Shown here: positions 3,786-63,337 of the stretch, one piece after another | How positions within the stretch are numbered: position 1 is the first letter of the stretch | Layout: every line of letters starts with the position of its first letter | Assembly: GCA_964016885.1 (NCBI GenBank) | Contig: OZ024745.1 | Span: 133,982,001-134,046,000, forward strand | Length of the DNA stretch: 64,000 nt | Origin: Eledone cirrhosa | Taxonomy: Eukaryota | Direction: 5' to 3' | Notes under the pieces: generated by a model | What the model was told of the DNA's origin: nothing | Seen by the model: only the letters and a program-made list of their open reading frames with translations | Database searches by the model: none | Made by a program: the position numbers and the translations under genes

Positions 3786-3850
3786 ATTTTATCTGATGAG
3801 GACGTACTGTTGAACTTGATTCAGTACCTCTGAAATATGTATAATAAAAT
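3786..3850 (+). ncRNA. Minimal type I hammerhead ribozyme (C-C mismatch class), PLE terminal-repeat relic
   Basis: ATTTTAT-CTGATGA-GGAC GTACTG..CAGTAC CTCT-GAAA-TATGTA-TA|ATAAAAT; 7-bp stem I, intact core; flanks resemble 26870-27070. Confidence 0.85.
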
Positions 3851-9484: not shown

Positions 9485-9843
9485 GACCTGTATCGGTTCC
9501 GACGATGAGTGTTCCAATTGTTCCAACTAAATCACCCGCTAATCAGCAGTGCTAACGTGTCATCACAATAATATCACTGTAGAGAAACTATGTTCAATCC
9601 ATCAATAGTTATTCCTATCATGGCTGAAATATGGCCATTTAATGTCTTAAAGACAGCCTAGCAATGGAGCTACTCGAGCCTTACCATTTACACAAGGATA
9701 AATTTGGCTGTGGAAACGATTCTAGGGCGCTTCTTTCTCTTCATACATAACATTTTATTTTTTAAGGCTTAATTCGGTTTTGATGCTAGCACTATCTCAT
9801 GAAAACAACACACTGCACATAGACTACACACTACACATAGACT

Positions 9844-10968
9844 ATAGCCACATATAACACATTACTACCTGTAATACAGCCACATATAACACATTACTAC
9901 CTGTACTACAGCCACATATAACATATTACTACCTGTACTACAGCCACATATAACACATTACTACCTGTAATACAGCTACATATAACACATTACTACCTGT
10001 AATACAGCCACATATAACACATTACTACCTGTACTACAGTCACATATAACACATTACTACCTGTACTACAGCCACATATAACACATTACTACCTGTAATA
10101 CAGCTACATATAACACATTACTACCTGTAATACAGCTACATATAACACATTACTACCTGTAATACAGCTACATATAACACATTACTACCTGTACTACAGT
10201 CACATATAACACATTACTACCTGTACTATAGCCACATATAACATATTACTACCTGTACTACAGCCACATATAACACATTACTACCTGTAATACAGCTACA
10301 TATAACATATTACTACCTGTAATACAGCTACATATAACACATTACTACCTGTACTACAGTCACATATAACACATTACTACCTGTACTATAGCCACATATA
10401 ACATATTACTACCTGTACTACAGCCACATATAACACATTACTACCTGTACTACAGCCACATATAACACATTACTACCTGTACTACAGCCACATATAACAT
10501 ATTACTACCTGTACTACAGTCACATATAACACATTACTACCTGTACTACAGTCACATATAACACATTACTACCTGTACTACAGTCACATATAACACATTA
10601 CTACCTGTACTACAGCTACATATAACACATTACTACCTGTACTACAGCCACATATAACATATTACTACCTGTAATACAGCTACATATAACATATTACTAC
10701 CTGTACTACAGTCACATATAACACATTACTACCTGTACTACAGCTACATATAACACATTACTACCTGTACTACAGTCACATATAACACATTACTACCTGT
10801 ACTACAGTCACATATAACACATTACTACCTGTACTACAGTCACATATAACACATTACTACCTGTACTACAGCTACATATAACACATTACTACCTGTACTA
10901 CAGTCACATATAACACATTACTACCTGTAATACAGCCACATATAACACATTACTACCTGTAATACAGC
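9844..10968. repeat. 32-bp minisatellite (CAGCCACATATAACACATTACTACCTGTACTA x~35)
   Basis: Period 32 measured (9851 to 9883); highly homogeneous. Confidence 0.95.
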
Positions 10969-13630: not shown

Positions 13631-13812
13631 CATCAATTATTAACTACAGGAATGTTAATTAAAAAGAATGGGGTAAACGTCTTCTTCATTGATGAATATA
13701 ATTGTGGGTAACCCCCCGTACCGCTACCGTCACTGATATCATCACAACATATGAAAGTAACAAAAGCAACAAGAACAACAAGAACAACAGCAACGACAGT
13801 AACAACAACAAC

Positions 13813-16507
13813 CACATCATGTGGTAGACGTAGTAAGAGAGAGTCACATGTGGTAGACGTAATAAAAGAGAGTCACATCATGTGGTAGGCGTAGTAAGAG
13901 AGAGTCACAGTCACATCATGTAGTAGACGTAGTAAGAGAGCGTCACATCATGTGGTAGGCGTGGTAAGAGAGAGTAACAGTTACATCATGTGGTAGACGT
14001 AGTAAGAGAGCGTCACATCATGTGGTAGGCGTAGTAAGAGAGAATCACAGTCACATCATGTAGTAGACGTGGTAAGAGAGAGTAACAGTTACATCATGTG
14101 GTAGACGTAGTAACAGCAACAAGCACATCATGTGATAGACGTATTAAGAGAGAGTCACATCATGTTGTAGACGTAGTAAGAGAGGGTCACATCATGTGGT
14201 AAATGTAGTAAGAGAGAGTCACACAATGTGGTAGACGTAGTAAGAGAGAGTCACATCATGTGGTAGACGTAGTAAGAGAGCGTCACATCATGTGGTAGAC
14301 GTAGTAAGAGAGCGTCACATCATGTGGTAGACGTAGTAAGAGAGCGTCACATTATGTGGTAGGCGTAGTAAGAGAGAGTCACAGTTACATCATGTGGTAG
14401 ATGGGGTAACAGCAACAACCACATCATGTGGTAGACGTAGAAAGAGAGAGTCACATCATGTGGTAGACGTAGTAAGAGAGCGTCACATCATGTGGTAGAC
14501 GTAATAAGAGAGAGTCACGTCATGTGGTAGACGTAGTAAGAGAGCGTCATATTATGTGGTAGGCATAGTAAGAGAGAGTCACAGTCACATCATGTGGTAG
14601 ACGTAGTAAGAGAGAGTCACATTATGTGGTAGACGTAATAAGAGAGAGTCACATCATGTGGTAGACGTAATAAGAGAGAGTCACATCATGTGGTAGACGT
14701 AGTAAGAAAGAGTCACATCATGCGGTAGACGTAGTAAGAGAGAGTAACATCATGTGGTAGACGTAGTAAGAGAGCGTCATATCATGTGGTAGACGTAGTA
14801 AGAGAGCGTCACATCATGTGGTAGACGTAGTAAGATAGAGTCACATGATGTGGTACACGTAGTAAGAGAGAGTCACATCATGTGGTAGACGTAGTAAGAG
14901 AGCGTCACATCATGTGGTAGACGTAGTAAGAGAGAGTCACATCATGTAGTAGACATAGTAAGAGAGCGTCAGATTATGTGGTAGGCGTAGTAAGAGAGAG
15001 CCACAGTCACATCATGTGGTAGACGTAGTAAGAGAGAGTCACAGTTACATCATGTGGTAGACGTAGTAACAGCAACAACCACATCATGTGGTAAATGTAG
15101 TAAGAGAGAGTCACATAATGTGGTAGACGTAGTAAGAGAGAGTCACATGATGTGGTAGACGTAGTAAGAGAGAGTCACATGATGTGGTAGACGTAGTAAG
15201 AGAGAGTCACATCATGTGGTAGACGTAGTAAGAGAGAGTCACATCATGTGGTAGACGTAGTAAGAGAGAGAGTCACAGTTACATCATGTGGTAGACGTGG
15301 TAACAGCAACAACAACATCATGTGGTAGACGTAGTAAGAGAGGGTGACATCATGTGGTAAATGTAGTAAAAGAGTCACATCATGTGGTAGACGTAGTAAG
15401 AAATAGTCACATCATGTGGTAGACGTAATAAGAGAGAGTCACCTCATGTGCTAGACTACTAAGAGAGAGTCACATCATGTGGTAGACGTAGTAAGAGAGG
15501 GTCACATCATGTGGTAAATGTAGTAAGAGAGAGTCACATCATGTTGTAGACGTATTAAGAGATAGTCACATTATGTGGTAGACATAGTAAGAGACAGTCA
15601 CATCATTGGTAGACGTAGTAAGAGAGAGTCACATCATGTGGTAGACGTAGTAAGAGAGCGTCACATCATGTGGTAGGTGTAGTAAGAGAGAGTCACAGTC
15701 ACATCATGTGGTAGACGTAGTAAGAGAGAGTCACAGTTACATCATGTGGTAGACGTAGTAACAGCAACAACCACATCATGTGGTAGACGTAGTAATAGAG
15801 GGTCACATCATGTGGTAAATGCTGTAAGAGATAGTCACACAATGTGGTAGACGTAGTAAGAGTGAGTCACATTATGTGGTAGACGTAGTAAGAGAGTGTC
15901 ACATCATGTGGGAGACGTAGTAAGAAAGAGTCACATGTGGTAGACGTAGTAAGAGAGCGTCACATCATGTGGTAGACGTAGTAAGAGAGCGTCACATCAT
16001 GTGGTAGGCGTAGTAAGAGAGAGTCACAGTCACATAATGTGGTATACGTAGTAAGAGAGAGTGACAGTTACATCATGTGGTAAACGTAGTAACAGCAACA
16101 ACCACATCATGTGGTAGACGTAGTAAGATAGAGTCACATCATGTGGTAGACGTAGTAAGAGAGAGTCACATCATGCGGTAAATGTAGTCAGAAAGAGTCA
16201 CATCATGTGGTAGACGTAGTAAGAGAGAGAGTCACATTATGTGGTAGACGTAGTAAGAGAGAGTCACACCATGTAGTAGACGTAGTAAGAGAGCGTCACA
16301 TCATGAGTTAGACGTAGTAAGAGAGAGTCACATCATGTGGTAGACGTAATTAAAGAGCGTCACATCATGTGGTAGGCGTAGTAAGAGAGAGTCATATCAT
16401 GTGGTAGACGTAGTAAGAGAGAGTCGCATCATGTGGTAGACGTAGTAAGAGAGAGTCACATCATATGGTAGACGTCGTAAGAGAGCGTCACATCATGTGG
16501 TAGACGT
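13813..16507. repeat. 32-bp minisatellite (CACATCATGTGGTAGACGTAGTAAGAGAGAGT, ~80 units with variants)
   Basis: Period 32 measured (15121 to 15153); recurrent variant units. Confidence 0.95.
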
Positions 16508-16788
16508 GTTTGAAACAGTTGAAAATAGACACTTTTCTCTTTGGTCAAGCACTCATCTCCTGAAAAAAGAAGAGGGAAGTCCTACCTTCCAGCAAAGGTT
16601 TTGGGGGTGGATATAAATGGCGAGCATGACAGAACATTCTCTGAACCTGTTAAAACTGGGAGAAAATCTGTTTTATTGGGATATTTATTGAAACTGTAGC
16701 ATTATTACATTAGGAACCATTGAGGTGTTTGTGCCTGAATAATGGGTTTCCTTTTAAGTAAACAACTACAAAAAGAAATGAATAAATA

Positions 16789-21710: not shown

Positions 21711-21799
21711 GGAAGATAGAAGGGGAACATTCAAAGTTCCTCCCCGTCTCTACAACAATTGTTCTTTATTTATGTTGCTCAATAGTTGTGTCTGTGTAT

Positions 21800-24700
21800 C
21801 TCTGTGTGATGTTCCCATCATCCTCTCTGATATATCCCATCATCCTCTCTATGTGATGTTCCCATCATCCTCTCTGATATTTCCCATCATCCTCTCTGAT
21901 ATTTCCCATCATCCTCTCTATGTGATGTTCCCATCATCCTCTCTGATATTTCCCATCATCCTCTCTATGTGATGTTCCCATCATCCTCTCTGATATTTCC
22001 CATCATCCTCTCTATGTGATGTTCCCATCATCCTCTCTGATATTTCCCATCATCCTCTCTATTTGATGTTCCCATCATCCTCTCTGATATATCCCATCAT
22101 CCTCTCTATCTGATGTTCCCATCATCCTCTCTGATATATCCCATCATCCTCTTTATGTGATGTTCCCATCATCCTCTCTGATATTTCCCATCATCCTCTC
22201 TATGTGATGTTCCCATCATCCTCTCTGATATTTCCCATCATCCTCTCTATGTGATGTTCCCATCATCCTCTCTGATATATCCCATCATCCTCTCTATCTG
22301 ATGTTCCCATCATCCTCTCTGATATATCCCATCATCCTCTTTATGTGATGTTCCCATCATCCTCTCTGATATTTCCCATCATCCTCTCTATGTGATGTTC
22401 CCATCATCCTCTCTGATATTTCCCATCATCCTCTCTATGTGATGTTCCCATCATCCTCTCTGATATATCCCATCATCCTTTCTATGTGATGTTCCCATCA
22501 TCCTCTCTGATATTTCCCATCATCCTCTCTATGTGATGTTCCCATCATCCTCTCTGATATATCCCATCATCCTCTGTATGTGATGTTCCCATCATCCTCT
22601 CTGATATTTCACATCATCCTCTCTATGTGATGTTCCCATCATCCTCTCTGATATATCCCATCATCCTCTCTATGTGATGTTCCCATCATCCTCTCTGATA
22701 TTTCCCATCATCCTCTCTATGTGATGTTTCCATCATCTTCTCTGATATTTCCCATCATCCTCTCTATGTGATGTTCCCATCATCCTCTCTGATATTTCCC
22801 ATCATCCTCTCTATGTGATGTTTCCATCATCTTCTCTGATATTTCCCATCATCCTCTCTATGTGATGTTCCCATCATCCTCTCTGATATTTCACATCATC
22901 CTCTCTATGTGATGTTCCCATCATCCTCTCTGATATTTCCCATCATCCTCTCTATGTGATGTTCCCATCATCCTCTCTGATATTTCCCATCATCCTCTCT
23001 ATGTGATGTTCCCATCATCCTCTCTGATATATCCCATCATCCTCTCTATTTGATGTTCCCATCATCCTCTCTGATATTTCCCATCATCCTCTCTATGTGA
23101 TGTTCCCATCATCCTCTCTGATATTTCACATCATCCTCTCTATGTGATGTTCCCATCATCCTCTCTGATATATCCCATCATCCTCTCTATGTGATGTTCC
23201 CATCATCCTCTCTGATATATCCCATCATCCTCTTTATGTGACGTTCCCATCATCCTCTCTGATATATCCCATCATCCTCTCTATGTGATGTTCCCATCAT
23301 CCTCTCTGATATTTCCCATCATCCTCTCTATCTGATGTTCCCATCATCCTCTCTGATATATCCCATCATCCTCTGTATGTGATGTTCCCATCATCCTCTC
23401 TGATATTTCCCATCATCCTCTCTATGTGATGTTCCCATCATCCTCTCTGATATATCCCATCATCCTCTGTATGTGATGTTCCCATCATCCTCTCTGATAT
23501 TTCACATCATCCTCTCTATGTGATGTTCCCATCATCCTCTCTGATATATCCCATCATCCTCTCTATGTGATGTTCCCATCATCCTCTCTGATATTTCCCA
23601 TCATCCTCTCTATGTGATGTTTCCATCATCTTCTCTGATATTTCCCATCATCCTCTCTATGTGATGTTCCCATCATCCTCTCTGATATTTCACATCATCC
23701 TCTCTATGTGATGTTCCCATCATCCTCTCTGATATTTCCCATCATCCTCTCTATGTGATGTTCCCATCATCCTCTCTGATATTTCCCATCATCCTCTCTA
23801 TGTGATGTTTCCATCATCTTCTCTGATATTTCCCATCATCCTCTCTATGTGATGTTCCCATCATCCTCTCTGATATTTCACATCATCCTCTCTATGTGAT
23901 GTTCCCATCATCCTCTCTGATATTTCCCATCATCCTCTCTATGTGATGTTCCCATCATCCTCTCTGATATTTCCCATCATCCTCTCTATGTGATGTTCCC
24001 ATCATCCTCTCTGATATATCCCATCATCCTCTCTATTTGATGTTCCCATCATCCTCTCTGATATTTCCCATCATCCTCTCTATGTGATGTTCCCATCATC
24101 CTCTCTGATATTTCACATCATCCTCTCTATGTGATGTTCCCATCATCCTCTCTGATATATCCCATCATCCTCTCTATGTGATGTTCCCATCATCCTCTCT
24201 GATATATCCCATCATCCTCTTTATGTGACGTTCCCATCATCCTCTCTGATATATCCCATCATCCTCTCTATGTGATGTTCCCATCATCCTCTCTGATATT
24301 TCCCATCATCCTCTCTATCTGATGTTCCCATCATCCTCTCTGATATATCCCATCATCCTCTGTATGTGATGTTCCCATCATCCTCTCTGATATTTCCCAT
24401 CATCCTCTCTATGTGATGTTCCCATCATCCTCTCTGATATATCCCATCATCCTCTGTATGTGATGTTCCCATCATCCTCTCTGATATTTCACATCATCCT
24501 CTCTATGTGATGTTCCCATCATCCTCTCTGATATATCCCATCATCCTCTGTATGTGATGTTCCCATCATCCTCTCTGATATTTCCCATCATCCTCTCTAT
24601 CTGATGTTCCCATCATCCTCTCTGATATATCCCATCATCCTCTGTATGTGATGTTCCCATCATCCTCTCTGATATTTCCCATCATCCTCTCTATGTGATG

Positions 24701-24905
24701 TTCCCATCATCCTCTCTGATATATCCCATCATCCTCTGTATGTGATGTTCCCATCATCCTCTCTGATATTTCCCATCATCCTCTCTATGTGATGTTCCCA
24801 TCATCCTCTCTGATATATCCCATCATCCTCTGTATGTGATGTTCCCATCATCCTCTCTGATATTTCACATCATCCTCTCTATGTGATGTTCTCACCATCC
24901 TCTCT
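21800..24905. repeat. 47-bp minisatellite (25+22-bp subunits, CCCATCATCCTCTCT core, ~66 units)
   Basis: Period 47 measured (22391 to 22438). Confidence 0.95.
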
Positions 24906-25300
24906 GTATAATATCTATCTGAAAAATATAATTATACAAGCAACATAATTCCTGTTTAATACTTCAGTGTATCTCTACATACCGCATTCCTAAACTTTCT
25001 TTTGTGTAAACTTCAACAAAGATTTAACACAACAATAAAATATTTGTAGATATGTTTATATATCTACATGTCATATATGTGTGTCTATAATGTATAAAAT
25101 ATACATTATAACTTATATTATATATTTTGAAAGATGCAGATTTGCTAATAAAGAAGTGCATTTAGAATCGAGTATATATATATATATACACACTCACTCG
25201 ATTCTAAATTTCTAAATGCACTTCTTTATATATATATATATATATATATATAAACAATTAAGTTAAAACGAAACGAAATTTAATTTCGTTTCGTTATTTG

Positions 25301-25759: not shown

Positions 25760-27070
25760 TTGCTTTCCTACTCGTTACCAAGACGACCTAACGGCCATTT
25801 TGCAGGTATCGGCACTAGAATCTCTAGCCTCTCTTCTAATAAAACAATCTTTGACAGAGTGACCTCCTACTACAACACGGCGTTAGCTAACAGCGGCTTC
25901 TCGCAACCAATTACTTACTCCCTACTAACACCAATAACAATAAGCAGAGAAATCCTGCTAATAGAAAAACGTTAATACTAAAGTAGGTAAAAGAGTTTTA
26001 GCTCTCTTAGATAGACACTTCCCCATAAGTCATAAATACCGCTCCATCTTTAACAGACTGAGGGTGAAACACCTGCGCTAAGAATATTAAAGCCCACATT
26101 ACCAACAACCCTAAGAGCAGAACCCCACCAGATGCTCTTGCCGAGGCCTGAAGCTTGTCCACTTCAACAACAATGTAACACGCCCGCTGTAATTTACGAA
26201 GCTGTGGTCACTTCTAACCGACCAAATTAACAACAAAAGGTCAAATCCTATGTAGGTTTGGCGGAGGGCCGGTTTAAAAAACGCTTCCTGAATCATCTGT
26301 CGACATTCAGACACCCGAACAAACGATCATCCACGAAGCTTGCGAGCCACGTATGGTCCCTCAAGGACTCAGGCGTGGATTACTCCATGCAATGGAAAGT
26401 CATTACTAAGTCTAAGCCATACGGAAATGGGAATCCGTCTTGTTGGCTGTGCATTGAAGAAAGAATCAATATCCTGAGATAGTTGCGTAATAGCGCTTGT
26501 CTAAATTCAAGGAATGAGCTTTTTTCGCGTTGTTCACACGTCTGGAAACACTTATTACGTAATTACAAAGCTCCAGACTGACTAACATGAATAATCTATA
26601 ATATTCTGGACTGAATAACATGAATGATCTATTATTATTCTGAGCTTCCACAGTTACCTCCCAACCACCGATCTAACGCTATTACTATCCTTATAACTAA
26701 TATTCTCTCTCACTTAAATATACTCACGTTTTTTCTCTTTCTTTCGTTTTTTCTCTTTTTCTCTTTCTTTCTCTCTCTTTTTTCTTTTTTTCTTTTTTCC
26801 GTATTCCAACGGCTTAATTTAAATATACTGTTATTTAAACCTTTCCGACACTAATTTGCATAATAAACCAACAATAAATCTAATAACTCCACTATCCAGG
26901 AGATTCCAACCAGAATGGTTGCATGTTTTCAGGGTATATCAATATTTATTTATAAAACTAACCTATATTATATTTTATCTGATGAAAGCGCACCATAATT
27001 TGCCTTGGTGGCCCTTGAAATATGTATAATGAAATAAATATGGTTTTATAAATATAGTTTCCATTTGTTA
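25760..27070 (+). mobile_element. Penelope-like element, Naiad-like, 5'-truncated: RT thumb, Cys-rich linker, GIY-YIG endonuclease, 3' UTR, hammerhead
   Basis: Frameshifted translation: IGTRISSLSSNKTIFD..YNTALANSGF; CSCR..CPLQQQC; AVIYEAVV..SYVGLAEGRFKKRFLNH..TKLASHVWSLK..CWLCIEE..LNSRNELFSRCSH; stop at ~26581; HHR at 26971. Confidence 0.88.
26971..27036 (+). ncRNA. Minimal type I hammerhead ribozyme (C-C mismatch class)
   Basis: TATTTTAT-CTGATGA-AAGC GCACCA..TGGTG(G)C CCTT-GAAA-TATGTA-TA|ATGAAATA. Confidence 0.85.
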
Positions 27071-27570
27071 ATATATTGTATATTTACTCCAATAATTTGT
27101 TGAGTGCTTTATATCAGTTATAAAAATATTTTGCTTGTTGTATCCCAACAAATTAAATATAACCTCTACATATATATATATATATATATATACATATTTA
27201 TATATGTTTATGTTTATATATGTATATATATACATGTGTTTATATATGTATATATACATGTAGATGAATTGAATTAACTATTAACATGTTAACTATATTT
27301 CACAAACGGGTCTTATACAATGATGGCAATGTGAAAAGAAAGGATACAAACAAAACTAAGTAATGAAAAAATGGCGGAGGGTTAAGGAAGGGCAGATCTG
27401 GCTGCGACAGAAAGAGGAGGAAAGGCCTACAAGTGCCATAAATGATAGGAAAGGGAGGGAAAGAGCAAGGACTACTAGGTGACGGAAGAATGAGGAGGAA
27501 GGGGAGAGTGTGGTGGGCTCTATGCCTAGGGTGGGGTGGTGTTTTGGCTGCTCACTGCGGAAATACAGTA

Positions 27571-46137: not shown

Positions 46138-46888
46138 TAGACCCCCGCTTCTGTCAGATATAGACTCCGCCTCTGTCAGATATAGACCCCGCCTCTGTCA
46201 GATGTAGACCCCGCCTCTGTCAGATATAGACCCCGCTTCTGACAGATGTAGACCCCGCCTCTGTCAGATGTAGACCTCGCCTCTGTCAGATATAGACCCC
46301 GCCTCTGACAGATGTAGACCCCGCCTCTGTCTGATGTAGACAGACCCCGCCCCTGTCAGATGTAGACCTCGCCTCTGTCTGATGTAGACACACCCCGCCT
46401 CTGACAGATGTAGACCCCGCCTCTGACAGATGTAGACCCCGCCTCTGACAGATGTAGACTCCGCCTCTGTCAGATGTAGACACACCCCGCCCCTGTCAGA
46501 TGTAGACACACCCCGCCCCTGTCAGATGTAGAAAGACCCCGCCCCTGTCAGATGTAGACCCCGCTTCTGTCAGATGTAGACACACCCCGCCCCTGTCAGA
46601 TGTAGACACACCCCGCCCCTGTCAGATGTAGAAAGACCCCGCCCCTGTCAGATGTAGACCCCGCCTCTGTCAGATGTAGACACACCCCGCCCCTGTCAGA
46701 TGTAGACACACCCCGCCCCTGTCAGATGTAGAAAGACCCCGCCCCTGTCAGATGTAGACCCCGCCTCTGTCAGATGTAGACACACCCCGCCCCTGTCAGA
46801 TGTAGACACACCCCGCCCCTGTCAGATGTAGACCCCGCCTCTGTCAGATGTAGACACACCCCACCCCTGTCAGCTGTAGACCCTGCCT
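46138..46888. repeat. GC-rich 22/26-bp minisatellite (GTCAGATGTAGA[CACA]CCCCGCCYCT)
   Basis: Read directly, ~30 units. Confidence 0.93.
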
Positions 46889-47010: not shown

Positions 47011-47885
47011 GATGTCCCTCCTCCTTCTCCCCCTGTTGACGTCAAGTCCTCCCAAAGCACTTGGGATGCCATCCAGTGCAGCCTGGCCTCAGACAGGCTC
47101 ACGCGCCAGCTCGACCAGCACCACCTTGCTTGTTTTCGTGCGGCCTCCAAATCCCAGTGGTGCCTAGCTCAATGCTCTGCCCTCCTTCTCCACTGGCACG
47201 CAGCTAGACAACCATAGCCTGCGAATCGGTGTTTCCCTGAGGCTCGGCCTCCGGATCTGCCAGCCACACCAATGTCGCTGCGGTTCCACAGTGGACTCTT
47301 TCGGCCTCCACCCGGTTTCCTGTCGCCACACTGCCGGCCGCATTCCACGCCATACTACCCTCAACGAGGTCATTAAGCATGGATTGGACGCTGCAGGCTT
47401 CCCTTCCCAGCTCGAGCCGGTGGGGCTGGATCGAGGAGACGGCAAAAGGCCAGATGGCATGACTATCTTCCCGTTCCGCGGTGGCAAACCCCTCGTCTGG
47501 GATGCCACTTGCACCGACACTTTCTGCAGCCGCAACCTGGTGCAGTCTGCGACTGACCCAGATTCTGCTGCACGTCGGGCTGAGGGGGCCAAACTCCTCA
47601 AATACCGGTCGATCTCCGACAGGTTTGCTGTCGTTCCCCTGGCAGTGGAAACTTCTGGTGTCCTCGGCCCCAGGGCTACCTCCTTACTCACTGACATAGG
47701 CGCTGAGCTGGCCAGCCGCAGGTGTGAGCCCCGCGAGTTGGAGTGGCTTTTCCAGCGCGTTTCCCTTGCCGTCCTCCGGGGAAACGCCTTCTCCATTCTG
47801 TCCGCGGGGGCTGTGGGTGGGCCCCATCGCGTACTAATACATTAGTTAAATACCATTCTTTCATCTCATACAACACAATAAAGTA
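47011..47885 (+). mobile_element. CRE-like non-LTR retrotransposon, 5'-truncated (Zn knuckle + PD-(D/E)xK restriction-like endonuclease)
   Basis: SQSTWD..AAS/GA*LNALP..LRLGL..CRCG..DSFGLHPVSC..RHTTLN..LEP..DGKRPDG..LVWDATC..KLLKY..PLAVETSG..FQRVSLAVLRGNA; GC-rich island. Confidence 0.88.
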
Positions 47886-49135
47886 CTTTTATCCTTAATA
47901 CATTAAATAACAATGTGTGTGTGTATATGTATGTGTGTGTGTGTATATGTGTGTGTGTGCGTGTGTGTGTGAACCGTTTGCGTGAATTACGTCGTTGAGA
48001 CTCGTTTCTAATCATATTCCTGGCGTCTGGAATTTACTCAATATAATTACCATATACATACCATCAATTCAACACGGACACTGACACATACTCTCTCTCT
48101 CTCTCTATCTATCTATATATCTATCTATCTATCTATCTCGGTCCACCCACCCACCCCCACACTCATTCATTATATATATGTATTATATATATATATATAT
48201 AGGAACGAGTAGGACCCCGACGGCTGAGCTCAAGCCGTTTCGACGGCTAATTCTGGACTATATATATATATAATACATATAAATATTCACTATGTTTTAT
48301 GAGAAGGGAAAGAGTTTTAAACTAAATGCGTTTTTTATTACAATTTCTCATCATTAAGTGTTGTAGTTTTATATTGTGTCCGTATGTGTGTGAGCACATG
48401 TGTGTGTATCTGTGTACGTCTATATGTGTGTGTGTGTGTGTGTGTGTCCTTTTGTGTCCATGTGTGTGTGTGTGTGTGTGTGTGTGTTTGTGTGTGTATT
48501 TGTGTGTATGTCGTGACATAAACAGAATTATGAAAAACAGTAGTCATAGCATCACTGTGCAGTCATTTAGGTGATTTAAATGTGAACTGCTACTAACAAT
48601 AAGTCATATTAGTAGTTAGGTCTATTGTACTAATAGTTTAATTTATTGTGATAGAGAGATATAGAGTGAGACAGAAAGAGAAGCACGAACAGATAGGATG
48701 TATAAAATGGTGAGGTGGAATGTTACAGACAAATCATAAATCGGTTTTGAAATGATTTCGCGACTATCTGTCACATTTTCTGACGTTATGGCCGTCGGGT
48801 GCTTTTTACCGGAAGCAGCAGATATGACAGGAACTCCAACCAAGTGGAAATCCTCAGAGACAGCTAGTTGTAAATGTTTTCAACATTTCAAACTGTATTT
48901 GACATGAAAAAGCTCGGATTAATTCTGACGATAATCCGAATAAATGGTAACATCTTGAAAGGCACACATGATTTCAATTTGTTTTATCTGTGTGTACATT
49001 TATATTAGTTGATGTTTCTTACTTATTCAACTATGTATTTATGTATCTACAATTCAATTGAAGTTTTTCTACGTCTGTCTCTACACATATACATATACAC
49101 CCATTCATCCATATAATTATATGTGTGAGTGTGTG

Positions 49136-49216: not shown

Positions 49217-49826
49217 ACTGGAAGGTAATATCCGTAGTGGTAGAGCACTCAGTCCATGGGACGAGTTTGATAGAAGTAGTTCCACAACAGTTGTTGTGTT
49301 ACTACTTCTATATATATATATATAACAAAGAAGGTGTGGTAAGATACCAGGTGGACCATAACGCACCAGAGTACTCGATACGTAGGGTAGTAGAGTGGGT
49401 TATAGGAAAAGAGTCAGGACCCCGACGGCTGCCCCAGCATGGCCTCAGCCGGATGGCTGGAACAGGTAAAAGAGTAAAAGAGTATATATATACACACACA
49501 CACATAAAAATATATATAAACGTATATATATTAGAAAAGGGAAGTAAGGTTCTATACAAAACAGTGAATATAGAGTAAAGGTGAAGTTGGAAATAGCATG
49601 GAAAATATATTTAAGGGTCTGTTTTTCTTTTTTTTTATCCTTTCTTTGATTCGTTAAAGTGACATAATTGAAAAGATGACATTATTGAAAAAATGAGGGG
49701 GACAATTCTTTTTAAAAATGTTTTATAATATATATATATAATAGTAGAACACTGGAAGGTAATATCCGTAGTGGTAGAGCACTCAGTCCATGGGACGAGT
49801 TTGGTAGAAGTAGTTCCACAACAGTT
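49212..49826 (+). repeat. ~80-bp near-identical direct repeat (49212-49292 and 49746-49826)
   Basis: AGAACACTGGAAGGTAATATCCGTAGTGG..TTCCACAACAGTT, 1 mismatch seen. Confidence 0.85.
49431..49484 (+). mobile_element. 3' end of a third short retroposon (inverse copy at 62571-62630)
   Basis: GCCCCAGCATGGCCTCAGCCGGATGGCTGRAACAGG(TAAAAGAG)2 in both places. Confidence 0.65.
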
Positions 49827-50285: not shown

Positions 50286-50409
<124 letters not shown>

Positions 50410-50453
50410 AAGTTAAATAAAAGTCAAATGATTAAAATTTAGCTTCGTTTATT

Positions 50454-50508
50454 ACTGCTATATATATTTCAGTGACAGCCATCTTTGGCTGTGACCTCTT
50501 CAGGCAGT
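50454..50508 (-). ncRNA. Minimal type I hammerhead ribozyme (left arm of palindrome)
   Basis: Reverse complement of 50739-50793. Confidence 0.9.
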
Positions 50509-50738
50509 TTGAATTAGTATGGTATAGACAAGTACATATGTTGTTTAGGTGTATGATATTGTCAATACTCTGATATGCCCAGTTCCTTGTTGGGTTGTTA
50601 ATTCACTGGGGAACTGGAGTCATATGACTCCAGTTCCCCAGTGAATTAACAACCCAACAAGGAACTGGGCATATCAGAGTATTGACAATATCATACACCT
50701 AAACAACATATGTACTTGTCTATACCATACTAATTCAA

Positions 50739-50793
50739 ACTGCCTGAAGAGGTCACAGCCAAAGATGGCTGTCACTGAAATATATATAGCAGT
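50739..50793 (+). ncRNA. Minimal type I hammerhead ribozyme (C-C mismatch class, right arm)
   Basis: ACTGC-CTGAAGA-GGTC ACAGCC AAAGAT GGCTGT CACT-GAAA-TATATA-TA|GCAGT. Confidence 0.9.
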
Positions 50794-51338
50794 AATAAAC
50801 GAAGCTAAATTTTAATCATTTGACTTTTATTTAACTTTATTTTACACTACTCCGGAGTAACCAAACCAACCTGCGCACTTCGTCGAGTGCTCCAGCCTGC
50901 ATACTGAGGTGTTGGTATACAACCAACATAAACTCAAAATATATATATATATATATATATATCAAAAGTATATATTGAGTTAAAAACTCACAATAGTCCC
51001 TTATAATTAAAATAACTCAAGGAAAATATTTTCCGAGCCTTATAATATAATAAAGAGAGGCAACCACAGGTATAAACATATATGCGTTCAAATCATAAAG
51101 GACGTAAACCGCCAGGTGAAGAAAATAATAACTAAGGATAATACGGTTTGCTAGACTCAATTAAAAGGATAAAAGATTTACAAACCGAATTATAACTATC
51201 AACATCCAGACAGCTTTGGGTAAAACTGTTTCACAATTAAGTGGAGAGTATATATCTGTCTTTGTCTCTCTTTATTATTATTATTATATATAAGGGTAGA
51301 AATGTATATATACACACACACACAGACACACACACACT

Positions 51339-51396
<58 letters not shown>

Positions 51397-52190
51397 TGTG
51401 TGTGTTTGTGTGTTTATGTGTATATATATATATATATGTATAGATGTGTGTGTGTGTGTATATGTATATGTGATGGTATGTATATATGTATTTGTGTGAG
51501 TATATATATGAATGTGTGTGTCGGTGTTATATATATATATATGTGTGTGTGTCTGTTCCTATTTCTATGTGAGAGTTATTTTTGTATGTGTGTGCCTATC
51601 TTTCTCTGTTTTCTATTTTTTATTTTTTGTTTTCAATAGATCTTGTATGTTTGTATTTATATGTGTCTATGTATGTATATATGTGGGTGTATTTGTGTGC
51701 GTGTGTGTATGTGTGTATATTTACAGATGTGTGCATGTGAATGTATATATATATATATATGTGAGTTAGATACGGATTTATGTCTTTTTTGTTTATGTAT
51801 GTGTATATATATATATATATATATACAAGTGGAAGGTTAGTAAAATCGAAGTTATGGCGGTGGCCAAGCTAACCAGATACAATTAGGTTTACACAAAAGC
51901 ACTCAATACGGATGTATCGATGAATCAATAGGCTATACTTTAGAGTAATTAACATACGTTAGATAGCGTGACAAACTGAAAACTACGGCAGGCGGGCCTA
52001 GCTACATAATTCACCAAAACAACGAAAATATAATCAGGTTAGATAACGTATGGAAGGGCATTGTGCAATAACTCCGATAGGTTTCTATGAATCCAAAATC
52101 GACAATCCTAAATTTTATTCGTCGAAACACTGATTCTCCGTTTCTTATGTGATAATCTTGCAAAACAAATTCAAAAACGAATTTATATAT

Positions 52191-53028: not shown

Positions 53029-53544
53029 TTATAAAGAGGAATTAGATCAATAGTATAAACTCTACCGACCTATATCACAAGAACGATCCATATTTAGCAC
53101 AGAGGACTAAGAAGAGTGGGGTGCTTGGAAAACAAATTCAAAAACGAATTAATATATATATATATATTAATTCGTTTTTGAATTTGTTTTGCAAGATTTC
53201 TTATCTGAAAAAGTGTGTTGAAACAGATATTGTTATACTTGGGAGGGCCATGCTGCTAGTAAAAACACACGCACCTGTTGGTTTTCACGTCAATTTATTA
53301 TAAGTTTCCGCTTTGTTGGTTGGTTCGATAATCGGAAGATTGTTTATATATTGTCAAAGCTCTTTTGTCACAAATTCTGTGACCTCCTCAGTGACTAGGT
53401 TTTAATTTTGTCTGTCCCTCCTTTGTTCTGTCCTACACCATCTTGTTTTTGTGTGTTGTGTGTTGCGTGTTGTGTGTTTAGTTTGCGCATGCGTTACGTC
53501 CGTGTGTGTGTGTTTATTTATTTATATATATATATAAGTATATA

Positions 53545-55628: not shown

Positions 55629-56113
55629 TAATAAAATAAACAACACAGATAATGGGATAGTGGAAGAGGTAAAAGAGTAATATATATATTCTCAGGAAAC
55701 TGGGAAAACTCGGCGTTAGAACAGCAAAATACCGTGGAAGCGGCGTTGGGTTAAATATTACCCCGGAAGACAGATATCAGCGGCTAGATGTGAGTTAACT
55801 CGGGGGGAGTAAGAGAAGATAGGAAGGATGAAATAGAATGGATGAAAGCGAACAGGTCACAAACATTTGAATACGTTCTTCAGATCTCAACCTCCTGCAG
55901 TTTCGACGAATTAATGAGATTACTGCGGGTGATAGGAGGCTCGTAACGGAGAAACAAATATCTTCGTTCAGATAATGTTTGTGTTGGGACAGGCTAGAGG
56001 GGAAGAGAAATATGGAGTGTGTCTGATCGACCCCAAGTCGTCGCGATAAAGAAACAATATTGGTGTGAGTAGAGCTGGCCTGTAGAAGGGGGAGAGGAGG
56101 GGGAGGAAGAAGG

Positions 56114-57060
56114 TGTAAATGTAAATGTAACAAGTTTTACATAGGTAGCACCATCCGACCCCTACATGTTCGTATCAAGGAACATATCAACACCAACGCA
56201 TCTTCCTTCCGTAAACATATCCTTAAATGCGGAAACCCACAGGGTAGACCCTTGGTCACAGTCCTAGCGACTGAACGCAGCATCGGATCCTTAAGGATAA
56301 AGGAAGCACTTGTTATTAAGAACCTCAGACCCCCACTTAACAACCGGGCTGAGAGAAATGAGCTGACATGGCTAACTTAACCATAATGACCATTTACAGC
56401 CTACGGCCTGCTATCTTCACACACACGCACGTATATGCATACCCATACGCATACACACACACATCTATATTTATACACGCACACATGTTTTTACAACCTA
56501 CCACCTTTCACACCCTTTGATTTCCAGCTTCTACAGCCCACTATCTTTCACACACAAACGCACTCACACATATACACACACAGTTACACACACATGTATA
56601 CCCATACGCTTACACACACACATCTATATTTATACACGCACACATATTTTACAACCTACCACCTTTCACACCCTTTGATTTCCAACTTCTACAGCCCACT
56701 ATCTTTCACACACACACACACTCACACATATACACACTTACACTTATACACACACAGTTACACACACATATATATCTACATACACATATCTTACGGCTTT
56801 CACACGCTAACGCACCCTCTAGATTTAACCCATTTGGTCAGTAGCTTTTGCCACAGCCTATCACGCGCACGCGCATTCTTTCCCTCGTTTAAATTTTAAA
56901 TATTTTTCTCCCCATAACGGCATTCCTGTCTTAACGACATCACAACTTTCTCCGCTTGGCCTGTTCCCCCCCTTTTGGAACTTTTCCCCCGTTGATGGGC
57001 GTGAGCCCGAAATATTGGGATTAAATCTCTACTACGGTAACCCTTCTACCTTTGTTTTGT
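56114..57060 (+). mobile_element. Penelope-like element 3' relic (GIY-YIG second half 56114-56380, UTR with 159-bp duplication, hammerhead)
   Basis: Open frame without ATG, missed by the ORF track: CKCNKFYIGSTIRPLHVRIKEH..SFRKHILKC..LRIKEALVIKNLRPPLNNRAERNEL. Confidence 0.88.
56985..57020 (+). ncRNA. Degenerate minimal hammerhead
   Basis: TCCC-CCGTTGA-T GGGC GTGA GCCC-GAAA-TA-TT|GGGA; GNRA-capped stem II, 2 core substitutions. Confidence 0.65.
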
Positions 57061-58176: not shown

Positions 58177-60232
<2,056 letters not shown>

Positions 60233-60533: not shown

Positions 60534-60641
60534 AATAAGTATATCTACCAACATATATATACAGATGCATACCTATGCTAGCAAATATATAGGTTTTGTC
60601 TTAGTAACTTTGTGGTTCAATGCAAGGGGATGCAGAACAAT

Positions 60642-60834
60642 TATATGAAAGACGTAAAATAAGAAAATTATAAAAATTAACTTACTTACTAAAATTTCAC
60701 TCCACCTAATTAGTTTCTGAAAGGGAATAAACATGGTTTCCAAATGGTAAGCATGGAGAAGCCATTTAGAAACTAATTAGTTGGAGTGAAATTTTAGTAA
60801 GTAAGTTCATTTTTATAATTTTCTTATTTACGTC

Positions 60835-60844
<10 letters not shown>
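60642..60844. repeat. Inverted repeat (~75-bp arms) of the HHR-bearing repeat also at 28645-28780
   Basis: ATGAAAGACGTAA..CTAATTAGTTTCT / AGAAACTAATTAG..TTACGTCTTTCAT; arms carry only the GAAA half of the HHR. Confidence 0.85.
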
Positions 60845-60932: not shown

Positions 60933-60973
60933 GATTCCTGATGATTTCTAATGAATGAAACAGTTCTAGTCCT
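60931..60973 (+). ncRNA. Probable minimal hammerhead (degenerate inverted partner ~61147-61185)
   Basis: GGGATTC-CTGATGA-TTTC TAAT GAAT-GAAA-CAGT-TC|TAGTCCT. Confidence 0.55.
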
Positions 60974-61234: not shown

Positions 61235-61331
<97 letters not shown>

Positions 61332-61485
61332 TATATACACGGGTGTGTATCATTGTGTATACAAGTTATATTAATAAAAGGAATTCCAACTTTGTCTGAT
61401 TTACTCGTTTTATTTACAATCCTTTAAAATTATAATGATAATATAATGAAATAGTATGGTAGAATATTAACTGTCAAGTGTTAAT

Positions 61486-61524
61486 TGAACAAGTACTTTC
61501 ATGCTTTCGCAATCTTCAGGTTCA
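61486..61524 (-). ncRNA. Minimal type I hammerhead (left arm)
   Basis: Minus strand TGAAC-CTGAAGA-T TGC GAAA GCA T-GAAA-GTAC-TT|GTTCA; GNRA tetraloop. Confidence 0.85.
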
Positions 61525-61613
61525 TATTCTGTGGTGACAGTCAAGTTTGCAATTTTCAACTGTTTGAAATTTACAAAGTTGAAAATTGCAAACTTGACTG
61601 TCACCACATATTA

Positions 61614-61652
61614 TGAACCTGAAGATTGCAAAAGCATGAAAGTACTTGTTCA
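61614..61652 (+). ncRNA. Minimal type I hammerhead (right arm)
   Basis: TGAAC-CTGAAGA-T TGC AAAA GCA T-GAAA-GTAC-TT|GTTCA. Confidence 0.82.
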
Positions 61653-61965
61653 ATTAACACTTAGAATTTAATATTCTACCATACTATTTCATTATATTAT
61701 CATTATAATTTTAAAGGATTGTAAATAAAACGAGTAAATCAGACAAAGTTGGAATTCCTTTTATTAATATATATATATATATATATGGAGTGCCGATGTG
61801 CGGAGAAGCTATAATATAGAATGACGACCCTTAAAGACGGATAAATAAGTTGCCATTATATGTGTGTGTGTGTGTATTCAAAAATACACATATATACGCA
61901 CTCACAATCCACGCGTCCCAACTGTATATCTCTCTTTTTCTCTCTCACTCACTCTACTTTCCCTC

Positions 61966-62359: not shown

Positions 62360-63337
<978 letters not shown>

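Follow-up and report, generated by a model that had tools for sequence, protein, structure and literature searches.

How does a palindrome come to lie beside (TA)n microsatellites with an outward-pointing hammerhead motif in each of its arms? This question is raised by positions 61367-61771 of a 64,000-nt stretch of the Eledone cirrhosa genome (contig OZ024745.1; the whole stretch is called the window below), which is AT-rich animal DNA and rich in microsatellites. We argue, at a probability of roughly 0.85, that the structure is what is left of a single insertion into a (TA)n microsatellite, either of an endonuclease-bearing (EN+) Penelope-like element (PLE) or of a non-autonomous RNA using the PLE enzyme. 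It is most likely ordinary in kind, representing a doubly truncated pair of PLE ends with passenger hammerheads, and its head-to-head, one-tailed layout has already been described.

The palindrome and its hammerhead motifs

A palindrome with arms of about 200 bp had been reported in a first-pass annotation of the window, and its presence was confirmed by a blastn self-match of 395 nt at 94.7% identity. The arms have about 195 bp each and meet in a centre that is imperfect over about 15 nt (Table 1). In ungapped register, seven substitutions separate the two arms. They are arranged in three clusters (61471/73/74/75, 61508, and 61527/29), and the differences between the arms are all substitutions, with no homopolymer indels. 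The four clustered substitutions of the right arm produce an exact 6-bp local hairpin at 61661-61677. The substitution at 61508/61630 is the loop mismatch GAAA versus AAAA that had already been noted. The symmetry of the palindrome halts at the arm ends, and the left and right flanks are unlike.

Table 1. Positions of the features at and around the palindrome, and of the elements with which it is compared. Covariance ranks refer to 16 window matches.
Feature	Position	Strand	Basis or remark
Left (TA)n run, taken as target	61237-61337		
29-nt one-sided 3′ extension ("tail") of left arm	61338-61366	-	AC-rich on the element strand; 41% GC
Left arm: 5′-truncated 3′ end (pLTR-like), read outwards	61367-61561	-	arm alignment
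Type I minimal hammerhead motif, 39 nt	61486-61524	-	predicted cut after 61491; covariance rank 2, rough E=0.005
6-bp DNA micro-hairpin terminating left arm	about 61554-61569		
Junction (imperfect centre), about 15 nt	61562-61576		arm alignment
Right arm: repeats the 3′ end of the left arm, flush in (TA)n	61577-61771	+	arm alignment, end comparison
Type I minimal hammerhead motif, 39 nt, loop II AAAA	61614-61652	+	predicted cut after 61647; covariance rank 3, rough E=0.007
Right (TA)n run, taken as target	61767-61786		first bases overlap the arm end
5′-truncated Hydra-type PLE remnant	26150-27170	+	GIY-YIG-type endonuclease C-terminus; hammerhead at 26979
Comparison: fold-back 40478-40608	40398-40608 with tail		left arm with 80-nt tail
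Comparison: 440-nt perfect palindrome with hammerheads, 50404-50843	50404-50938 with tail		left arm flush, right arm with 95-nt tail
Comparison: fold-back 60647-60838	60562-60838 with tail		right arm flush, left arm with 85-nt tail

By blastn, the arm matches nothing else in the window, and no head-to-tail tandem repeat of it was found there either. An ORF coding for a reverse transcriptase (RT) and a GIY-YIG endonuclease is absent from the arms, and the palindrome is not classed as an autonomous full-length PLE. One arm ORF was among the 140 of 284 window ORFs that were scanned against Pfam, and it gave no match. Part of the stretch is found in 12 of the 17 listed sequencing runs, with a share of at least 0.2 in six of them, small shares being no evidence; there is no RNA run among the listed runs that match the stretch.

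Each strand carries a 39-nt hammerhead motif in its 3′ arm, as had been proposed. Both motifs fit the core CUGANGA / GAAA / UH together with helices I and II. Stem I has 5 bp, stem II has 3 bp over a U.U mismatch, and stem III is self-complementary; in the motif of the left arm, stem II is capped by a GAAA loop. At the base of stem II, the U.U replaces the G10.1-C11.1 pair, which is common but not universal. The motif of each arm points outwards, and the predicted cut sites are located 119 and 153 nt before (TA)n. Throughout the window, seven motifs with a palindromic stem III and a stem I of at least 5 bp were found, while the mean was 0.017 in 60 block-wise dinucleotide shuffles. The motif had been called close to the smallest possible size. 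This is a fair description, although min-HHRs (minimal hammerheads) without any helix III or loop 3 have been published (PMC4209133). Rfam gave no match at the gathering score within the palindrome, and no hammerhead family is found among its 53 E-value matches, which are mostly sub-threshold miRNA models placed on the hairpin centre.

The 15.2-16.2 region of the motif is palindromic, which would allow a dimer. When two copies were cofolded, this palindrome paired in trans (-16.4 kcal/mol), over-extended by an A14-U17 pair, and the folding z-scores of the 39-nt monomer are unremarkable (0.3 and -0.4). As the two motifs are on opposite strands, a dimer in cis is not possible. A transcript reading through the whole palindrome is predicted to form a hairpin of -292 kcal/mol, and the folding prediction assigns the hammerhead stems in this transcript a pairing probability of 0.0; thus, the ribozyme is predicted to be silenced by the palindrome. 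As stem III consists of a self-complementary 6-mer and requires a dimer, and as the hammerhead stems are predicted not to form in the palindrome transcript, the monomer would probably not self-cleave. In published work, a min-HHR monomer that was tested did not cleave, and min-HHRs pair as dimers (PMC4209133). The folding predictions suggest that the hammerhead pair would be a by-product of the element's 3′ end and not a design, with the motifs sequestered in the long hairpin.

Further single type I hammerhead motifs occur at 3793, 26979, 49873(-), 53024(-) and 60938. Each is found 21-141 nt before a (TA)n run, and those at 60938 and 53024 have a stable stem III.

Fold-backs with one flush and one extended end

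The two ends of the palindrome are not equivalent. The right arm is flush with (TA)n, the element's own ATATA overlapping the target repeat, while the left arm continues for 29 further bases before its (TA)n run is reached. The outer ends had been described as AT-rich and abutting (TA)n. The former is correct (20% GC in the outer 100 bp of each arm), while the latter holds for the right end only.

We searched the window for other fold-backs of at least 130 nt after masking of microsatellites and found exactly four, at 50404-50843, 61367-61771, 60647-60838 and 40478-40608. Each of the four has a flush arm that abuts (TA)n directly and an arm that is extended, by 95, 29, 85 and 80 nt, respectively. 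The flush-plus-tail pattern occurs in 0.5-0.9% of random placements, by a criterion that was defined after seeing the data. For the length of the focal palindrome, the chance of having both ends within 100 nt of a (TA)4 is 2.7%. Each flush end sits where the TA-like letters of the element overlap the target repeat, and this is also the case at the related locus L007, which is described below. A whole or half hammerhead is contained in each of the four fold-backs, while such ends span only about 3.0 kb of the 64 kb. By our own count, the window has about 13 hammerhead-type 3′ ends, four of which are fold-backs.

The palindrome at 50.4 kb is 100% symmetric and has no loop. As stated in the first-pass annotation, it is unrelated in sequence to the focal palindrome (no blastn similarity at E≤0.01) and has the same layout. 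The view of the focal palindrome as a genuine genomic structure is also supported. In the fold-back at 60562-60838, each arm has only the 3′ half of a hammerhead and the junction is located inside stem II. A single-arm relative, at 28641-28790 (-), has the whole hammerhead with a long stem II region of 50 nt. This fold-back lies 600 bp to the left of the focal palindrome, and its loop corresponds to the hammerhead stem II of its own family.

The fold-back at 40398-40608 likewise retains in both arms a hammerhead-like motif reduced to its 3′ half, and has its junction within stem II. Its 80-nt tail is shared by an independent single copy (49327-49429), while its short end is shared by another single copy (48202-48258). 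As the former copy carries the extension and the latter stops at the short end, the extension belongs to the element, and these elements have two fixed 3′ ends that are 80 nt apart. Neither the fold-back nor either of the single copies has the 5′ half of the hammerhead, and the copy at 49327-49429 is fused to a SINE-like piece. By analogy with this family, and with the loci L007 and L006 described below, the 29-nt extension of the focal palindrome is probably also element sequence.

Thus, two of the four fold-back families are also present in the window as single arms, with different truncation points, which indicates that palindromes are formed in single insertion events. Within the window, each palindrome occurs only once.

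Inverted pairs of the opposite, tail-to-tail geometry are also found, centred on TA runs (53124-53195, 52154-52183; 62360-62475 with 63235-63337; 25267-25295). These probably represent two insertions into one microsatellite. The copies at 62360-62475 and 63235-63337 share GAAAGTACTT; they were rejected as hammerheads, having no valid core or stem I.

PLE remnants in the window and related loci

The window contains a PLE remnant that has retained part of its coding region. At 26 kb, an endonuclease remnant (about 26150-26580) is followed, after some 400 nt, by a hammerhead, with (TA)n 141 nt past the cut site. The endonuclease piece has 3538 homologues at E≤0.001. Their alignment shows a CxCx5C linker and CxxC and CxH motifs, the remnant itself showing the CxxC part. 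These motifs define the Hydra clade, which is described as (TA)n-targeting and hammerhead-bearing (PMC8557442). The Hydra label is based on the motif match to the text of that paper, since Pfam GIY-YIG matches were obtained for 3 of the 23 homologues scanned, all below the curated cut-off.

A second scrap of a GIY-YIG endonuclease is located at 56069-56377 (Pfam E=7e-4, below the cut-off; Atlas 0.95); its hammerhead may be the degraded hammerhead-like motif near 56990. Endonuclease C-terminal scraps are also found near 60197(-), 2198(-) and 52317, so that there are five PLE-type scraps of at least two kinds. Word-indexed protein searches with two of the endonuclease scraps and a PDB sequence search found nothing.

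With 12 of the homologues, 79 related loci were fetched, taken from the best 80 of 490 matches; several of these loci belong to the same family. In 44 of the 79 loci, the endonuclease is followed by a sense hammerhead at a distance of no more than 1 kb. When only loci with at least 400 nt of downstream sequence are considered, the sense hammerhead is present in 26 of 37, compared to one on the opposite strand and none in shuffled sequence. In the 79 loci, where contigs are short, an inverted copy of the locus's own downstream sequence was detected at the 5′ side in four (L007, L030, L070 and L078), none of which is a short symmetric palindrome like the focal one. In L007, head-to-head hammerhead ends in (TA)n surround an ORF, the main copy being flush and the inverted copy tailed. 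The inverted copy has about 70 nt of extra sequence, which match native element sequence in L006, and its own short AT run is found at 2 nt. Apart from having one long arm, the layout of L007 is that of the focal palindrome. In L029 (1-160) and L067 (1-52), ORF sequence is folded back over a short distance at the 5′ truncation side of Hydra-type elements; as both fold-backs are at contig starts, they may be assembly effects.

A covariance model was built from 40 distinct PLE hammerheads of the related loci. The focal motifs rank second and third among the 16 window matches of this model, with approximate E-values to which the universal hammerhead core contributes in part. The stem II frame T[TC]G..C[AG]T of the focal motifs is shared by 18 of the 44 Hydra-locus motifs, and the U.U variant is likewise seen in 18 of 44. 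Stem III of the focal motif begins with GAAAG, while GAAAC is found in 44 of 44 Hydra-locus motifs. A hairpin motif after the hammerhead is present in 25 of 30 Hydra loci; it is absent from the left focal arm and loosely matched in the right one. The stem III difference and the hairpin both speak against placing the focal family in the Hydra clade. An nhmmer comparison of the focal hammerhead and its downstream sequence with the Hydra loci gave E=0.17. L060 gave a weak blastn match with the arm (E=0.044), which was rejected as chance since it is out of register with the hammerhead.

Elsewhere in the window there is a dispersed SINE-like family of 140-230 nt with at least 11 copies (1284, 13110, 13450, 17390, 18746, 33100, 33330, 34561, 37142, 40742 and 41344), which we take to resemble octopus SINEs. 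The regions 32236-32778(-), 38282-38704(+) and 47168-47845(+) are presumably broken non-LTR retrotransposon-like ORF fragments, judged by their motifs; Pfam gave no match for these three. Long minisatellite arrays occupy 21799-24910 (47-bp unit), 13798-16519, 9816-10968 and 46138-46888.

Origin of the palindrome

Four hallmarks of a PLE insertion are present at the focal locus: a sense hammerhead at the 3′ end, a 5′-truncated head-to-head copy, a tail on one side only, and a (TA)n target. For this family, the PLE origin is suggested by architecture and not by homology, as the palindrome has no ORF, and window blastn and pattern scans revealed no further copy and no ORF-bearing parent. Scans with the exact pattern of the focal motif gave 0 matches in IMG/VR viral contigs and 0 in metagenome contigs.

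Palindromes are a known class of sequencing and assembly artefact, and so a fold-back read chimera has to be considered. The symmetry, however, does not extend past the arms into the flanks, which are unlike each other, the arms are distinguished by substitutions and not by homopolymer indels, and both ends lie at (TA)n in a reproducible pattern. We therefore see hardly any probability for an artefact. The first-pass annotation had likewise dismissed a chimera, taking the mismatches as signs of an aged structure. The age is weakly based, since the substitutions are confined to three clusters, one of which, the four-base cluster in the right arm, may be one templated event, as by a single template switch. 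Long inverted repeats in a TA context also resemble a fold-back DNA transposon or a MITE with a TA target duplication, in which the hammerhead-like motif would occur by chance. This reading is largely refuted and very improbable in our view. The termini are asymmetric with a one-sided extension of 29 nt, sister families have single arms, the motif count is far above that of shuffled sequence, and four unrelated fold-backs all carry hammerhead parts in the same orientation.

It is also conceivable that the palindrome itself is mobile. It would then be a MITE-like derivative of a PLE, non-autonomous, and the PLE enzyme would copy its hairpin, as RNA or DNA, and insert it in one piece. The presence of four such structures in 64 kb would fit, as would the perfect, loopless symmetry at 50.4 kb and the finding that words of the stretch reach a share of at least 0.2 in runs under three organism labels, which concerns word content only. 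We nevertheless consider whole-palindrome mobility improbable: none of the palindromes recurs in the window, the two multi-copy families are single arms with different truncation points, and a transcript forming a hairpin of -292 kcal/mol would be a poor template. There is likewise little probability that the arms derive from a non-LTR retrozyme, a small circular RNA with a type I hammerhead, of which an inverted pair of monomers was inserted by the PLE RT. An arm of about 200-230 nt with no ORF would agree with this, and the U.U at the base of stem II is also found in the axolotl retrozyme HHR_Amex2 (PMC7229834). Moreover, retrozymes have been proposed to be derivatives of PLE pLTRs and to occur as monomers (bioRxiv 10.64898/2026.07.22.740005). 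Against a retrozyme, the arm is without a tandem head-to-tail repeat in the window, its ends are fixed relative to the hammerhead, and the tail is as in PLEs; the mechanism would in any case equal that of a PLE insertion.

We thus return to the insertion of a PLE, for which published work suggests a course of events. The GIY-YIG endonuclease of the element would nick AT-rich DNA. Reverse transcription would begin at either of two internal positions past the hammerhead, the tail being the difference between them. For the PAc protein, nicking and extension of both strands of AT-rich DNA have been shown; its RT starts at two internal sites with the tail between them, and hammerhead cleavage is dispensable for PAc insertion in vitro (PMC11167929). 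At the focal locus, a first cDNA may have started at the outer site, giving rise to the tailed left arm, and may have stalled after about 230 nt. To produce the second, inverted copy, either this cDNA would have folded back and copied itself, or the other nicked strand would have primed a second cDNA, which was then joined head-to-head. Folding back of the cDNA is slightly favoured (about 60:40), as the two arms end at almost the same position. The inverted arm would have been closed where the element's own ATATA pairs with (TA)n, leaving the right arm flush, and the hammerheads would be dimer-type passengers of the element's 3′ end.

A more far-reaching reading is that short, ORF-less fold-backs make up a large part of what PLE insertion produces here, the tailed arm being the primary cDNA, which is self-primed by a hairpin, while the copy-back is closed at ATATA versus (TA)n. 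We regard this as possible but doubtful. In two of the four fold-backs (at 60.7 kb and 40.5 kb) the junction is located at the ribozyme's own stem II. If the reading were true, the origin of PLE inverted ends would be settled, and there would be thousands of near-perfect 200-bp hairpins as possible sources of dsRNA for editing or silencing.

Very short symmetric inserts reduce an insertion to two ends and a junction and thus provide a clean record of PLE insertion. A genome-wide census of such inserts could decide between self-priming of the cDNA and priming by both strands, a choice that is left open in PMC3846280 and PMC8557442. In addition, ORF-less PLE inserts are easily misannotated as MITEs or as miRNA hairpins.

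Comparison with known systems

The recurrence of the layout had been taken to imply a general mechanism. This is supported, but the design is not a new one: it is that of PLE insertion, which is already in print. Inverted 5′-truncated copies, a one-sided tail of 30-40 bp and a bias for (TA)n have been reported for PLEs (PMC8557442). Head-to-head inverted PLE ends with junction palindromes have been ascribed to self-priming on an antisense template (PMC3846280), and the optional tail of 30-40 bp has also been described (PMC3846280, PMC11167929). Inverted pLTRs and 3′ extensions are listed as curation features (PMC8969392). Dual min-HHRs have been found about 100-700 bp apart on opposite strands, and scattered motifs have been related to truncated PLEs (PMC4209133). 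In one octopus genome, 31 recently active Penelope-like families are described, with hammerheads and palindromes unmentioned in the available part of the paper (PMC13282606). A search by title and start of abstract, with most of the subscription literature outside its coverage, found no publication on ORF-less symmetric hammerhead fold-backs; this motif class or short palindromic inserts may be shown in the supplementary figures of PMC4209133 or PMC8557442.

Non-LTR retrozymes (Cervera and de la Pena 2020, PMC7229834; bioRxiv 10.64898/2026.07.22.740005) resemble the focal element in being short non-coding units with a dimer-type type I hammerhead. They are, however, head-to-tail tandems as described there, while the focal copies are head-to-head and their motifs are never on one RNA strand. 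With the minimal hammerheads of metazoan PLEs (Cervera and de la Pena 2014, PMC4209133), the focal motifs share type I topology, a short helix I and a small palindromic helix III that requires a dimer. They differ from the hammerheads described there in having a helix II of 3 bp, a U.U in place of the conserved G10.1-C11.1, and a cleavage triplet ending in U. The U.U at the base of stem II is a described hammerhead variant (PMC7229834).

As in the Hydra clade (Craig et al. 2021), the focal element targets (TA)n and has a 3′ hammerhead, and a Hydra-type remnant is found in the same window. Unlike in the Hydra-locus motifs, stem III begins with G and not with C (G in 0 of 44), and the downstream hairpin is not clearly present. 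The length of the tail fits descriptions of Penelope/Poseidon or Naiad rather than those of Hydra. The closest counterparts are EN+ PLE copies with an inverted pLTR (Arkhipova et al. 2013, PMC3846280; Craig et al. 2021, PMC8557442), which have head-to-head 3′ ends with a junction palindrome, a tail on one end only (30-40 bp as published, 29 nt here), a (TA)n target, and no discernible target duplication. The inverted copies reported in these two papers flank a longer unit, while at the focal locus both copies are cut to about 200 bp, there is no ORF, and the whole insert is one palindrome.
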